Assembly: GCA_036499825.1 (NCBI GenBank) | Contig: DASYCZ010000012.1 | Span: 1-64,000 of the forward strand | Reading direction: 5' to 3' | Source: Devosiaceae bacterium | Lineage (GTDB): Bacteria; Pseudomonadota; Alphaproteobacteria; Rhizobiales; Devosiaceae | DNA length: 64,000 bases | Shown here: positions 12,724 through 61,092 of the stretch, in pieces | Numbering within the stretch: the stretch's first letter is position 1 | Layout: each line of letters starts with the position of its first letter | The notes under the pieces: model-generated | Seen by the model: only the letters and a program-made list of their open reading frames with translations | Database searches by the model: none | What the model was told of the DNA's origin: nothing | Program-made: the position numbers and the translations under genes

Positions 12724-13371
12724 CTATTTGGTTTTCAAGCTTAAATTGCTAAGCTCTAGAATGACGCCGCCACTATCGGTAACGCTTGGATGTTCTATCA
12801 CGTCAAAGCGCCAGCGCGCATCCGTTTCCGCCAGCTCTTCAACATATTCCCGGCCTTTATGCAGCAGCGCGCGGGTTTGTGATGTAAAAAACGGCATCAT
12901 CATACCGCAGAGATCGTTGAGACTCGCCAGTGCGCGTGCGGTTATCACGTCAGGCGGCAATGTTTCACGTGGATCAATGGCGTCGCTCCGATTCGACAGC
13001 ACAGTGACATTCAGCGAAAGGTCCCGTGCAACGGCTCTGAGAAAGCTCACCTTTCTGGAGTTCGAGTCGATCAGGACGAAGCGCGGCTTACCCTTCAGCG
13101 CGATGGCAAGCGGCAATGAGGGGAAACCGCCGCCGCTGCCGAAGTCGAGAAAGTTCGCCGCGTCCCCCACAAGGCTCAGAATCTGCAAGCTATCGGCGAT
13201 ATGGCGTGTCCATAGCGTCGCCAATGTTTCACGTGAAACAAGATTCTGTATCCTCTGCCATTTCTGCAATAACTGAGAAAAGGATTCCAGATCACTGGCG
13301 ACTTCGCTGATCGGCCGCGTCAGCCACTGCTCATAGGGAGCGAGCGTTGCGAGAGCCTCTTGTCCGGCCAC
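12724..13371 (-). CDS. rsmG: 16S rRNA (guanine527-N7)-methyltransferase RsmG (GidB)
   Basis: GidB family SAM-binding motifs (LDFGSGGGFPSLPLA); GTG start; conserved mnmG-rsmG-parAB order. Confidence 0.9.
   Translation of the reverse strand: MAGQEALATLAPYEQWLTRPISEVASDLESFSQLLQKWQRIQNLVSRETLATLWTRHIADSLQILSLVGDAANFLDFGSGGGFPSLPLAIALKGKPRFVLIDSNSRKVSFLRAVARDLSLNVTVLSNRSDAIDPRETLPPDVITARALASLNDLCGMMMPFFTSQTRALLHKGREYVEELAETDARWRFDVIEHPSVTDSGGVILELSNLSLKTK
12961..12976. other. parS: parS-like site (TGTTTCACGTGGATCA, 14/16) inside rsmG
   Basis: Read directly. Confidence 0.5.
13225..13240. other. parS: Perfect parS site (TGTTTCACGTGAAACA, 16/16) inside rsmG coding sequence
   Basis: Read directly; exact match to the canonical parS. 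On the minus strand it encodes V-S-R-E-T of RsmG. Confidence 0.9.
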
Positions 13372-18092: not shown

Positions 18093-18521
18093 TCAGAATG
18101 GTTTGACGATGACCATGATGACGATGACGATCATCAGGACCGTCGGAATCTCGTTGATCATGCGGAAGAATTTGGCCGGCTTGTCGTTCCGGTCCTGGGC
18201 GAATGCCCTCAGATACCGGCCCAAAACGCCGTGAAAACCGCTGAGCGCCAGAACGAACACGGCCTTGACCCAGGGCCAGATGCTGCTCCAGTCGACCGCG
18301 CCGCCAAAGATCATCGCCAGGCCGAACACATAAGCGGCGATCATCGCCGGCGTGGTGATGCCGCGATAGAGCCGCCGCTCCATGATCTTGAAGGTTTCGG
18401 ACTGCACCGAGCCTTTTTCGGCATCGGCGTGATAGACGAACAATCGCGGCAGATACAGCATGCCCGCCATCCAGGCGATCACCGAGATCACATGCAGTGC
18501 CTTGACCCATTCGATCCACAT
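18093..18521 (-). CDS. hemJ: Protoporphyrinogen IX oxidase HemJ (CopD-like membrane protein)
   Basis: 142 aa, multi-pass membrane protein with HemJ signature (W..A.H.I.....AG..YLPRLFVYH). Confidence 0.8.
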   Translation of the reverse strand: MWIEWVKALHVISVIAWMAGMLYLPRLFVYHADAEKGSVQSETFKIMERRLYRGITTPAMIAAYVFGLAMIFGGAVDWSSIWPWVKAVFVLALSGFHGVLGRYLRAFAQDRNDKPAKFFRMINEIPTVLMIVIVIMVIVKPF

Positions 18522-19561
18522 CAGCGGCGACCCTTTACGATTTCGACCAGTTCCGCCACGTTTTCGATCGGCGTTTCCGGCACAATGCCATGCCCGAGGT
18601 TGAAGATATGCGGCCGGCCCGAAAAGCCCCTGATGATGGCTTCCGCCCGCTCCCGCATCTGTGTCCCACCTGCCACGAGGCGCAGCGGATCAAGATTGCC
18701 CTGCACGCCGAGCGTCCTGGGCAGGATGGAATCCGCAAACCCCACCGGCATCGAATAATCGAGGCCGACGAGATTTACCTTAGTCGATTCGGCGTAGCGG
18801 GAAATCATGCCGGCGGCACCACGGGGAAAACCGATGATGGGCGCGTCGGCGATCTGCTGCCGGACGCCGGCAACGATGCGGCAGTTCGGCTCAATCACAT
18901 GGGAAACGAAGGCGTCTTCGTCAAGGTTCAGCGCCCAGCTTTCAAACAGCTGCACCACATCGGCGCCGGCGCGGAACTGCGCCACCAGATGGGCGATACT
19001 GGCCTCGATGAGGATATCCAGCAATTGCCCGAAGGCCTCGGGTTGTTGCAGCGCGAACAGCCGGGCCGCCGCCTGATCGGTCGAACCCCGGCCGTTTATC
19101 ATGTAGGTCGCAACAGTCCAGGGCGAGCCGCAAAAGCCGATCAGCGTCTTGTCGGCCGCAAGGCTCGCTTTCACCCGCTCCAGGGTTTCGTAGACCGGCG
19201 CCAGAAACTTGACCACGCCTTCCGGCTTCAAAGCCGCAAGGCTACCGGCATCCACCGGATCGAGACGTGGTCCCTCGCCCACTTCAAAGCGAACTTTCTG
19301 GCCCAGCGCATCCGGGATGATGAGAATGTCCGAAAAGATGATCGCCGCATCGAGATCGAAGCGGCGCAGCGGCTGCAGCGTCACTTCCGCAGCCATTTCG
19401 GGGTTGTAGCACAGCTCGAGGAAGCTGCCGGCCTTGGCACGCAGCGCCTTGTACTCGGGAAGATAGCGCCCTGCCTGTCGCATCACCCACATGGGCGGCC
19501 GTTCCTGGCGCTGTCCCAGAACCGTGTCCAGTAAAGGCTTGCCGCTCGTCTTCGGGCTCAA
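18521..19561 (-). CDS. hemE: Uroporphyrinogen decarboxylase
   Basis: PPMWVMRQAGRYLPEY and downstream URO-D motifs. Probable TTG start at LSPKTSGKPLL; a longer in-frame ORF runs to 19687 but lacks a good start. Confidence 0.9.
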   Translation of the reverse strand: MSPKTSGKPLLDTVLGQRQERPPMWVMRQAGRYLPEYKALRAKAGSFLELCYNPEMAAEVTLQPLRRFDLDAAIIFSDILIIPDALGQKVRFEVGEGPRLDPVDAGSLAALKPEGVVKFLAPVYETLERVKASLAADKTLIGFCGSPWTVATYMINGRGSTDQAAARLFALQQPEAFGQLLDILIEASIAHLVAQFRAGADVVQLFESWALNLDEDAFVSHVIEPNCRIVAGVRQQIADAPIIGFPRGAAGMISRYAESTKVNLVGLDYSMPVGFADSILPRTLGVQGNLDPLRLVAGGTQMRERAEAIIRGFSGRPHIFNLGHGIVPETPIENVAELVEIVKGRR

Positions 19562-20005
19562 TGGGATACCCCGCTTCCCTTCCAGGAAGAGAATCTTTTC
19601 TTGTTTATCTTTATTATCATAGCGGTGTTTTGCCCCAATTCCTGGCCGTCCACAATCGCTGGCGTGATGACACAAGCGCACAGCCACAAAGGTAAACTAT
19701 GTGTAAACGCCGGCCGTGATCCCAACGGGGAAAAGCCCGGAAAATCATGGTTAACGAACCGTTAATCCGGGCCTTTCGGAGGGCGGCGGAATTTTCTCCA
19801 TTGGGGAAAACTCCTGCACCGGCACGGGCTTGCGGCTTTGGGTTTTCCCCAGAGTTACCAGTCTTGGGCCATGAGGCGTCCACAGCACCATGCCTGTGCA
19901 CGAAAAAGCGCGGCACTGGGATAAACCCGTCTCGCCGGTCTTCCCGACGGTATTTTCACAACCGGGGTCTTGAGCCAGCGTGAACTGTGTGGAAAACCTC
20001 AACGC
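19562..20005. promoter_or_regulatory. oriC: Candidate chromosomal replication origin (oriC/Cori-like) in the hemE-maf divergent intergenic region
   Basis: Same position as Caulobacter Cori (hemE | Cori | CC0001-maf-aroE-coaE-dnaQ). Contains an AT-rich stretch (19595-19625), a TTAACgaaccgTTAA CtrA-type box (19751-19765), a weaker GTAA-N7-GTAA box (19692-19706) and DnaA-box-like 9-mers (TGTGGAAAA at 19988-19996; CCGTCCACA at 19646-19654; GCGTCCACA near 19878). Confidence 0.5.
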
Positions 20006-34973: not shown

Positions 34974-35087
34974 GCCCCACCCCACCCTTAATCCCTCCCC
35001 ATCAAAGGGGAGGGAAATCCCGACTGAGAGTCCTGCGGCTCCATCGTCTCCCTCCCCCTACGTGGGGAGGGATTAAGGGTGGGGGGC
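34974..35087. repeat. REP/RIME-like nested palindromic element (CCCCACCCTTAATCCCTCCCC ... GGGGAGGGATTAAGGGTGGGG)
   Basis: Outer and inner inverted repeats read directly; the GGGATTAAGGGTGGGG motif recurs at 44925, 45170 and 45395. Confidence 0.7.
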
Positions 35088-44789: not shown

Positions 44790-45420
44790 ACTGCGTTCGT
44801 CATGCCGGAACGGTGCGGTTCAGCGCGCGTGGCCACCCCCACCCGACCCCCATGGGGCCACCCTCCCCACAAGGGGGAGGGAGAGTGAAGGAGCCGCAAG
44901 CACTGCGCGGGTTTCCCTCCCCCTTGTGGGGAGGGATTAAGGGTGGGGGTGGAGCAGCGCTGCGCATTTGCGGCGCGGCAAGGTCCAGGTTCTCCGGTAC
45001 TATCGCTCCCCACCACCGGGTCATCCCGGCGGAGGCCGGGATCCATGCGGGGAGCGTCCCACACGCTGGATGTGTCGGCCCGCCACGGACATGGATTCCG
45101 GCCTCCGCCGGAATGACCCGGTGGGATGATTTGAGGCAAGAAGGCCATGAGAGCTAAGCTCGAATGGCCGGGATTAAGGGGGCAGCGCTGCGCATTTGCG
45201 GCGCGGCAAGGTCCAAGTTCTCCGGTACTATCGCTCCCCACCACCGGGTCATCCCGGCGCAGGCCGGGATCCATGCGGGGAGCGTCCCACACGCTGGATG
45301 CATCGGCCAGCCACGGACATGGATTCCGGCCTGCGCCGGAATGACCCGGTGGGATGATTTGAGGCAAGAAGGCCGTGAGAGCTAAGCTCGAATGGCCGGG
45401 ATTAAGTGTGGGGGTGGGCA
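44790..45420. repeat. Complex repeat region: a RIME-like palindrome (44790-44950), then two tandem roughly 230-bp units (44937-45173; 45174-45402), each with a long inverted repeat of about 35-bp arms
   Basis: Units about 95% identical, read directly. Arm 1 is CCACCGGGTCATCCCGGCG[G/C]AGGCCGGGATCCATG; arm 2 is its reverse complement about 45 bp downstream. The single arm difference between units is matched in the partner arm. ORF 44732..45421 (-) over this region is regarded as spurious. Confidence 0.8.
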
Positions 45421-56053: not shown

Positions 56054-56190
56054 TTCGATAAAGCTTGAGCGATTAACGCTGTCAACTCATTTAAGGGCAA
56101 ACGCAGGGCCCGCCAAGCGCCGCCGCCTTGTGAGCGCCCCCCCGAAGGGTTAAGAGGCGGTTAACGTCTAAAACCCAAGGTGATTTGCCG

Positions 56191-60957: not shown

Positions 60958-61092
60958 GGCGACCGGCCTTCCATAGGGCGATGGCGCCGGCCCTGGCATC
61001 GTGGCCCAGTCTGTGACCACGTCTCCGGCGCTATACAAAATCGCCCCTGGCTGCTTAAAGACGGCTTAACCCTCCGGAAAGGACCGGCCCGC

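Follow-up and report, generated by a model that had tools for sequence, protein, structure and literature searches.

A conserved origin-type spacer between hemE and maf in Devosiaceae, set in DNA of uniform strand polarity

Results

Gene neighborhood and features of the hemE-maf spacer

The window, which is the whole 64,000-nucleotide stretch of Devosiaceae DNA analyzed here, contains a 444-bp non-coding spacer from which hemE and maf are transcribed divergently. Identification with NCBIfam and Pfam gives the order parB-parA-rsmG-mnmG-mnmE-rho-hemJ-hemE to the left of the spacer, where hemJ is the UPF0093 gene and all genes from parB to hemE run leftward, and maf-aroE-coaE-dnaQ to the right, running rightward. 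This bears out the neighborhood (hemE, maf-aroE-coaE-dnaQ and parAB) that the first-pass annotation of this DNA had likened to that of the Caulobacter origin. The maf-aroE-coaE-dnaQ order was also found in four other Devosiaceae loci, and the hemE-maf-dnaQ-secB-tim44-hslU order is unbroken in four other Devosiaceae assemblies. The hemE protein is 70-79% identical to proteins of Devosia and Pelagibacterium, and gshB, further to the right, shows 87% identity to Devosia sp. H5989 and Paradevosia shaoguanensis.

The left edge of the spacer hinges on the start codon assigned to hemE. A TTG at 19561 yields a product of 346 aa, to which NCBI protein P0001 is identical in length and sequence, and the JGI call of 386 aa places the start inside the spacer. 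We favor the TTG because the NCBI hemE protein has 346 aa. The features of the locus, in window coordinates, are as follows.

18521-19561, minus strand: hemE (uroporphyrinogen decarboxylase; TIGR01464, E = 3e-116), left boundary gene
19562-20005, non-coding, 444 bp: hemE-maf divergent spacer between the hemE and maf starts, origin-type region
19587-19622, no strand assigned: AT-rich patch adjoining hemE, candidate unwinding element and/or hemE -10 region
19591-19595, no strand assigned: GANTC (CcrM-type methylation site), here GAATC
19613-19642, no strand assigned: nearly invariant block ATTATCATAGCGGTGTTTTGC..CAATTCC, with many invariant alignment columns
19646-19654, plus strand: D1, DnaA-box-like, CCGTCCACA, with the core GTCCACAAT at 19648-19656
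19669-19683, no strand assigned: conserved block GACACAAGCGCACAG, family consensus GGCACAAGCGCGCAG
19692-19706, no strand assigned: degenerate CtrA-type site GTAAACTATGTGTAA
19747-19766, minus strand: canonical CtrA box, reading TTAACGGTTCGTTAACCAT on the minus strand with its flanks
19802-19810, minus strand: D2, DnaA-box-like, TGGGGAAAA (= TTTTCCCCA), two mismatches to TTATCCACA
19843-19851, plus strand: D3, DnaA-box-like, TTTTCCCCA
19894-19902, minus strand: D4, weak DnaA-box-like, within CTGTGCACG
19918-19926, minus strand: D5, weak DnaA-box-like, GGGATAAAC, the least certain element
19969-19997, minus strand: conserved block CTTGAGCC..GAACTGTGTGGAAAAC, which holds D6
19988-19996, minus strand: D6, DnaA box, = TTTTCCACA, 8/9
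20006-22729, plus strand: maf-aroE-coaE-dnaQ (NCBIfam matches), right boundary operon, maf ATG at 20006

Ten parS-like sites lie to the left and to the right of the spacer, with a dense cluster 1.5-8.6 kb away from it. The region is therefore centromere-proximal, and the true origin is probably not far off. The dnaA gene is not among the annotated genes of the window, and tblastn with E. coli DnaA gave no match in any of the loci fetched, among them the window itself. An Rfam search of 19400-20200 found no family. A 24-mer REP-like repeat also occurs in the window and is widespread in metagenome contigs among the matches listed.

The spacer is conserved across Devosiaceae

We aligned the window spacer with eleven other Devosiaceae hemE-maf spacers of 409-456 bp (alignment A1). 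Identical bases occupy 99 columns in at least 10 of the 12 sequences, and the window departs from these at only 3, despite an overall identity of ∼48% to the other aligned spacers; the spacer has therefore not decayed in the window lineage. The conserved blocks include GANTC, CCACAAT, ATTATCATGGCGGTGTTTTGC, TTATCCCCA, TGTnnA and, directly before maf, TGTGGAAAA.

On the hemE side, the AT-rich patch described in the first-pass annotation at 19595-19625 is present, with 29% GC. The 31-mer at 19587-19617 (19% GC) is the most AT-rich in the whole 64 kb, and the patch belongs to the second least stable 41-mer of the same 64 kb. The same position is AT-rich in the spacers of Ensifer, Rhizobium, Mesorhizobium and Aminobacter. 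The published definition of the basal unwinding system (BUS) asks for a DnaA box of no more than two mismatches, 0-16 bp from at least three NAN trios and in a defined orientation (PMC8287927). By our own reading the minus strand of the patch contains nine NAN triplets, with no DnaA box on the side and at the distance demanded by the BUS rule, and none of the three spacer boxes with at most two mismatches precedes such a run of trios.

The GANTC within the patch occupies a column kept in all 12 aligned spacers, its middle base varying so that the site reads GAATC or GAGTC. It is the only such site in the window spacer, as against 2-8 per ∼430 bp in relatives and ∼1.6 expected from composition by our own arithmetic. 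The nearly invariant block that follows contains, in the direction of hemE, the sequence TATGATAAT, which we read as a possible -10 element. A scan of the spacer with the sigma-70 consensus found no promoter, and its two terminator-like hairpins are no more than expected by chance. The IHF consensus was matched nowhere in the spacer, either as WATCAANNNNTTR or as WATCAN5WTR.

DnaA-box-like elements recur at conserved positions

The best DnaA box of the spacer is D6, the only one with at most one mismatch. It corresponds to the 9-mer TGTGGAAAA reported by the first-pass annotation at 19988-19996, and its TGTG and A432 are invariant in 12/12 spacers, with the trailing A's nearly so. D6 ends 9 bp ahead of the maf ATG, and because of this proximity a role in maf expression is inseparable from DnaA binding at this box. 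The same annotation had pointed to two xxGTCCACA copies, which fare differently. The first, CCGTCCACA at 19646-19654, is both present and conserved, CCACAAT being shared across the family, and is our D1. The second, placed near 19878, is present as GCGTCCACA at 19876-19884 but is not conserved in the family.

The remaining elements are weaker. At the position aligned with D2, relatives carry TGTGCAAAA, TGTGGACAG and similar sequences, and D3 has the family consensus TTATCCCCA with invariant C columns. D4 keeps a TGTnnA pattern, formed by columns T334, G335, T336 and A339, in which TG and A never vary and the second T almost never does; relatives show TGTTGATG, TGTGGATG or TGTTAATG here. D5 has three mismatches to the consensus by our own reading and aligns with the conserved block CCAGCGGGGACAA.

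Taken by itself, the window spacer holds three boxes with at most two mismatches and one with at most one, a weak signal against shuffled sequences (P = 0.064), even though the spacer is the densest 500-bp cluster of DnaA boxes in the 64 kb. It is the family comparison that makes the DnaA-box signal significant as a sequence pattern. The 12 Devosiaceae spacers together contain 63 9-mers within two mismatches of TTATCCACA, compared to 10.6 ± 3.3 in shuffles, a sixfold enrichment that is spread over five or six recurrent positions in both orientations. These DnaA-like boxes are under purifying selection across Devosiaceae.

CtrA-type boxes are a family feature

A full CtrA-type box had been claimed at 19751-19765, and we find it there as TTAACGAACCGTTAA. 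Read on the minus strand with its flanks, TTAACGGTTCGTTAACCAT fully matches both published forms of the CtrA motif, TTAA-N7-TTAAC and TTAACCAT. The pattern TTAA-N7-TTAA occurs at three sites in the 64 kb, where shuffles predict 0.03, and the other two sites also lie in divergent spacers, the one between hrcA and rph being identical in six genomes. So strong an excess in spacers is indirect evidence that the organism may encode CtrA and its phosphorelay. The weaker GTAA-N7-GTAA noted earlier is likewise present, as GTAAACTATGTGTAA at 19692-19706. Its aligned position is occupied by a canonical TTAA-N7-TTAA in two relatives (L005 and L009) and by a near-canonical one in two others (L007 and L008).

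At the aligned position of the window's canonical box, 9 of the 12 spacers have a canonical box with an N7 that differs between species, and at least one canonical TTAA-N7-TTAA is found somewhere in the spacer in 11 of the 12. Two further aligned positions hold a box in subsets of species, the window's GTAAACTATGTGTAA being at one of them. Among four additional relatives, three have one or two boxes, and within 21 kb these lie only in the hemE-maf spacer, so that most of 16 Devosiaceae spacers have kept a CtrA site. Fixed half-sites separated by a variable N7 are the pattern predicted by selection on the two half-sites.

None of the 10 non-Devosiaceae spacers from Rhizobiaceae, Brucellaceae and Phyllobacteriaceae contains TTAA-N7-TTAA. 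In agreement with this, the S. meliloti origin was reported to have neither a CtrA motif nor CtrA binding (PMC4433202), and CtrA was reported not to bind the B. abortus origin (PMC2877005). The CtrA box predicted here is a real difference from the origins of S. meliloti and Brucella.

The first-pass annotation had further reasoned that a CtrA box in the origin would imply Caulobacter-like cell-cycle control of initiation. Such control does not follow from the box alone. The canonical box overlaps no DnaA-like box, the nearest of which start 37 bp to its right (19802) and end 97 bp to its left (19654). Since there is neither an overlap of CtrA and DnaA boxes nor an IHF site, direct competition of the Caulobacter type is not evident, even if the spacer is an origin.

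Comparison with hemE-linked origins of other alphaproteobacteria

Cori of Caulobacter crescentus is linked to hemE and comprises five CtrA sites, seven weak DnaA boxes, an IHF site and five GANTC sites (PMC6393856). The window spacer resembles it in lying upstream of hemE, in its weak DnaA boxes, in an AT-rich region next to hemE and in the presence of TTAA-N7-TTAA and GANTC. The far side of Cori is occupied by maf-aroE-coaE-dnaQ, as in the window. The window spacer differs from Cori in its CtrA boxes, one canonical and one degenerate where Cori has five, in its single GANTC, and in lacking an overlap of CtrA and DnaA boxes, an IHF consensus, a bordering COG1806/duf299 gene and a switch of strand polarity.

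Within Hyphomicrobiales, the oriC of S. meliloti is also adjacent to hemE, and Sibley et al. reportedly showed in 2006 that it replicates autonomously and binds DnaA. Brucella oriI lies near hemE as well (PMC4104442), and spacers of this type are the accepted origins of both Caulobacter and Brucella. The distance from hemE to maf in Ensifer, Rhizobium, Brucella, Mesorhizobium and others is 1.2-1.4 kb. In Ensifer a COG1806 (Kinase-PPPase) gene sits between the two and leaves a hemE-proximal spacer of 407 bp; this gene is absent from the spacer region of the window and from all Devosiaceae loci examined. Ten other Hyphomicrobiales spacers share the layout of the window spacer, with paired GANTC sites accompanying an AT-rich patch by hemE and with further DnaA boxes at 220-400 bp. 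A GTCCAC box is found ∼90 bp from hemE in Ensifer and Nitratireductor, with degenerate GTCCA or GTCCC versions in Aminobacter and Mesorhizobium.

The Ensifer spacer (L034) is thus close to that of the window in size (407 versus 444 bp), in its AT-rich patch and GANTC, and in a GTCCAC ∼90 bp from hemE followed by more DnaA boxes at 220-400 bp, whereas the COG1806 gene and the "leading" genes on both sides of the Ensifer spacer have no equivalent in the window. These comparisons support the view that, in position and architecture alike, the spacer corresponds to the hemE-linked origin of alphaproteobacteria. Judged by sequence, Devosiaceae have a variant form of a known module, one without the COG1806 gene and with conserved CtrA boxes.

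In Hyphomonas neptunium, CtrA gives a single ChIP-seq peak next to the origin (PMC7200025). The window shares with it one CtrA site at or beside an origin-type region, as opposed to an array of five, but Hyphomonas belongs to a different order of bacteria, and CtrA binding has been shown in Hyphomonas and is only predicted here.

Strand polarity does not change at the spacer

The first-pass annotation proposed the GC-skew switch as a test of an origin at this locus. Plain GC skew is negative in nearly all 1-kb bins of the window, and cumulative skew drops steadily throughout. We computed GC3 and AT3 skew per gene strand, a procedure that strips the effects of codon usage and gene orientation, and extended the analysis by a further 9.3 kb of the source, the 719.6-kb metagenome contig Ga0376653_0000022 (JGI 3300036781), to coordinate 73316. 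On the plus strand, GC3 skew is about -0.24 for plus-strand genes and about 0 for minus-strand genes on either side of the spacer. For GC3 the strand component amounts to -0.133 on the left flank of the spacer, -0.101 between 20 and 42 kb and -0.098 between 42 and 64 kb, and it stays below zero in all 8-kb bins and over the 64-73 kb extension. The corresponding AT3 values are -0.076, -0.074 and -0.060, and non-coding DNA has a GC skew of -0.071 on the left flank and -0.053 on the right flank.

By all four measures (GC3, AT3, non-coding and plain skew), the test went against an origin here, the sign being the same at the spacer and throughout the interval from -19.5 kb to +53 kb. Neither a polarity switch nor an alternative origin was found in this interval, and the contig runs 107 kb further. 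The asymmetry is strong, with |r| of ∼0.1, and this is therefore not a genome without skew. Its sign is that expected if the minus strand is leading throughout, which fits the leftward mnmE-mnmG-rsmG-parAB cluster. Strand bias of GGGCAGGG and GCTGGTGG agrees with the skew but is confounded by G-richness, and we give it little weight. Uniform polarity implies that replication forks have passed through the spacer in one direction, right to left, and that they diverge from a point over 53 kb away on the right; that another origin exists, and where, is what we infer from it. Misassembly was considered as a cause of the missing switch and rejected, since four independent Devosiaceae assemblies and a Logan contig all show the window's gene order across the spacer.

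Five other Devosiaceae genomes repeat this polarity in their gshB block (54-69 kb in the window), with values from -0.027 to -0.149; linkage of the block to the maf side of the spacer is established in the window only. Because the polarity is kept in these five relatives, the polarity state is old. As a control, orthologous genes of Ensifer, Rhizobium and Brucella look "leading" on both sides of the spacer, with a right-minus-left difference of -0.02 to +0.07, compared to -0.20 for the same genes in the window and -0.09 to -0.19 in Mesorhizobium. Within 10 kb of hemE in three relatives the skew is noisy and not decisive, at about 0 on the hemE side and -0.02, +0.08 and -0.07 on the maf side (window orientation). 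One of the three, L205, has an origin-consistent sign on its maf side within 10 kb.

Discussion

The origin proposed in the first-pass annotation holds up in part. The spacer is an origin-type module with real CtrA boxes and conserved DnaA-like boxes, but its use as an active start of replication is disfavored by the uniform strand polarity around it. We consider that it is best read as an origin-type region that has been retained and to which DnaA and CtrA bind, without its being the principal site of initiation, a reading to which we give a probability of about one half. The spacer would then be the Devosiaceae version of an ancestral hemE-linked alphaproteobacterial origin module, in which an AT-rich patch and a CcrM site by hemE are followed by five or six weak-to-moderate DnaA boxes, and to which Devosiaceae would have added one to two CtrA boxes mid-module. 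The module is under purifying selection and, judging by its motifs, most likely still binds DnaA and phosphorylated CtrA. Forks would cross the spacer from the maf side toward hemE, from a principal origin more than 53 kb to the right. The likeliest present role would be that of a control region, occupied by DnaA and CtrA, for the divergent hemE and maf-aroE-coaE-dnaQ units, and the spacer may in addition be a dormant or secondary origin, or titrate DnaA.

Some observations sit uneasily with a retained region that is not the main start site. Five to six conserved DnaA boxes together with an AT-rich patch suit an active origin and exceed what a promoter usually contains, and both the dense parS cluster nearby and the maf-side sign of L205 are consistent with an origin. 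We also know of no natural bacterial origin that was abandoned yet kept under selection. Were the spacer an active principal chromosomal origin gated by CtrA as in Caulobacter, DnaA would assemble on the boxes and open the AT-rich patch beside hemE, and phosphorylated CtrA at 19751-19765, and weakly at 19692-19706, would block initiation in one cell type. The layout and position of the spacer, homologous to Caulobacter Cori, Brucella oriI and S. meliloti oriC, argue for such an origin, as do the enriched and conserved DnaA-like boxes, the most AT-rich stretch of the window, the parS sites on either side, the divergence of genes from the spacer and the single origin-adjacent CtrA site bound in Hyphomonas (PMC7200025). 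We nevertheless regard it as unlikely, given that a strongly asymmetric sequence shows no polarity change at the spacer or from -19.5 to +53 kb and that five relatives keep the gshB block in the same polarity. For an active origin to hold, the polarity evidence would have to mislead in some manner that we are unable to construct. An inversion cannot hide the switch: if it contained the origin, the switch would stay at the origin, and if it ended at the spacer, it would part hemE from maf-dnaQ-secB-tim44-hslU, an order intact in four relatives. The absence of an IHF consensus and of any DnaA-like box overlapping the CtrA box also weighs against gating of the Caulobacter kind. An active origin could be reconciled with uniform polarity on both flanks in one way only, if replication from the spacer were unidirectional or strongly asymmetric, with a leftward fork alone and the right flank copied after a full circuit. 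No fork barrier was seen, the proposal is a logical possibility more than anything else, and we know of no bacterial chromosome that replicates unidirectionally, which counts against it; we hold it to be highly improbable.

Uniform polarity is, on the other hand, fully compatible with an ordinary divergent promoter region, holding no more than the promoters and leaders of hemE and the maf operon and a CtrA box that would make transcription depend on the cell cycle. The resemblance to DnaA boxes would then be inherited or incidental, and DnaA would play no part. The single-sequence box count (P = 0.064) falls short of significance, the best box lies 9 bp before the maf start codon, the -10-like TATGATAAT points toward hemE from inside the most conserved block (by our own reading), and the company of the other two TTAA-N7-TTAA sites of the window, which are in divergent spacers too and include the hrcA/rph site common to six genomes, also suggests promoter function. 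What such a region would leave unexplained is that 12 spacers have six times the expected number of DnaA-like 9-mers, at five to six conserved positions, that the layout is common to spacers that are origins in other families, and that some 99 columns are conserved along all 444 bp, which is more than a pair of promoters typically requires; nor was a sigma-70 consensus promoter found. We rate a plain promoter region as slightly less probable again than the active, CtrA-gated origin, and we leave a small remainder of the probability with none of these readings.

Clusters of DnaA boxes away from an origin are familiar from E. coli, where datA and DARS lie apart from oriC and regulate DnaA. If our preferred reading is right, the Devosiaceae spacer would resemble these loci functionally, as a conserved DnaA-box cluster off the point of fork divergence. 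It has no sequence or evolutionary relation to them and lacks an IHF site, and to our knowledge no locus of the datA/DARS type has been described in alphaproteobacteria. Another parallel is chromosome 1 of Ochrobactrum anthropi, where two candidate origins separated by 882 kb are listed in DoriC, the first next to dnaA and the second next to hemE (PMC4403523). There a member of Hyphomicrobiales has a hemE-linked origin-like spacer together with a further candidate origin, a precedent for a hemE spacer that is not the sole origin or not the one in use, and both cases are prediction only; the window differs in having no local skew minimum at the hemE spacer. The double listing indicates that the status of the hemE spacer in Hyphomicrobiales is not settled. 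A literature search found no report on origins in Devosia or Mesorhizobium.

At the level of the family, we would put at somewhat below even odds that Devosiaceae initiate replication away from the ancestral hemE-linked origin and yet keep the old module, CtrA boxes included, under purifying selection, in the role of a dormant or secondary origin, or of a DnaA/CtrA control locus. Phyllobacteriaceae such as Mesorhizobium, whose maf side is of "lagging" type, may have undergone the same relocation.

Prediction of alphaproteobacterial origins leans on hemE or maf as indicator genes together with DnaA boxes (PMC2275245, PMC3794950). In the window this recipe picks a well-conserved origin-like spacer, and strand composition says that forks do not diverge there. 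If our reading is correct, an origin module can outlive its role in initiation, automatic origin calls in Hyphomicrobiales need checking, and Devosiaceae would provide a natural case of origin relocation in which the former origin is retained. The family-wide CtrA box, set against S. meliloti and Brucella, also bears on how origins acquired or lost direct control by CtrA. Direct testing is possible in cultured relatives with complete genomes, namely Devosia sp. H5989, Devosia sp. 1566 and Paradevosia shaoguanensis. As a lead only, the position of gshB in the records of three complete isolate genomes would suit an origin close to the record start.

Boundaries of the hemE-maf spacer

In Caulobacter the COG1806 gene (Kinase-PPPase, duf299) adjoins the origin, and in Ensifer (locus L034) it sits between hemE and maf; other Hyphomicrobiales loci share this hemE-maf spacing of 1.2 to 1.4 kb. 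None of the Devosiaceae loci examined (L001-L011, L060, and L204-L207) has space for a COG1806 gene at this position, and maf is therefore the boundary gene in these loci.

On the hemE side, the JGI gene call gives a protein of 386 aa starting at ∼19681, which counts 19562-19681 as coding and would overlap both the AT-rich patch and the DnaA-box-like element D1. The NCBI hemE protein of the same organism has 346 aa, corresponding to a TTG start at 19561. This protein and the homologue alignment both favor TTG 19561.

parS-like, CtrA-type, and GANTC sites

Allowing up to two mismatches to the 16-mer TGTTTCACGTGAAACA, we found 10 parS-like sites in the window and its rightward extension on the source contig (L083), against 0.01 expected.

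parS-like 16-mers by side of the spacer
Left: 10973, 12961, 13225, 15268, 15305, 18058
Right: 32467, 37942, 47990, L083 13164 (= window 65532)

The six sites on the left, including a perfect copy at 13225, are clustered within and around parAB-mnmG-rho, and the remaining four are scattered to the right as far as 46 kb away.

Two further CtrA-type boxes lie outside the spacer, both in divergent intergenic regions.

CtrA-type boxes outside the spacer
56150-56164, TTAA-N7-TTAA, hrcA/rph divergent spacer
61055-61069, TTAA-N7-TTAA, lppC-like/rsmI divergent spacer

The hrcA/rph box, GTTAAGAGGCGGTTAAC, has the same sequence, including the N7 bases, in six Devosiaceae genomes; the full lppC/rsmI box is not retained in relatives. 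The equivalent hemE-maf spacers of relatives (L001-L011 and L060) carry 2 to 8 GANTC sites per ∼430 bp, and in L005, L007, L009, and L010 a 12-bp palindrome containing GANTC, GACTCCGGAGTC, directly follows the CtrA box. This palindrome is absent from the window's spacer, where a single GANTC is found, at 19591.

Strand skew at other hemE loci

In Mesorhizobium (L037, L043, L059, L061, L074, L075, and L079) and Aminobacter (L071 and L072), third-position skew of the maf-side genes minus that of the hemE-side genes is -0.09 to -0.19. Relative to the hemE side, the maf side is of the lagging type, as in the window and unlike Ensifer, Rhizobium, and Brucella, where the difference is about 0. Perfect TTATCCACA boxes are still present in the Mesorhizobium and Aminobacter hemE spacers, and the fork-divergence point in these genera may also lie away from the hemE-linked spacer.

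In a Devosia contig the size of a chromosome (4.36 Mb; L204; JGI 3300063157, Ga0597485_0017), hemE lies at 2.10 Mb, almost exactly at the midpoint, and the strand component of skew is about 0 on both flanks (10 kb each side).

REP-like repeats

Two families of G/C-rich, REP-like hairpin repeats occur in the window and its extension.

REP-like repeats
51632, 54102, and L083 13100 (= window 65468), CCCTCTCCCCGGAGGGGCGAGGGG, three copies in one orientation
34980-35086 and 44861-44950, GGGGAGGGATTAAGGGTGGGG paired with hairpins CCCTCCCC..GGGGAGGG

The exact REP-like 24-mer was found in more than 120 metagenome contigs among the matches listed, from many environments.
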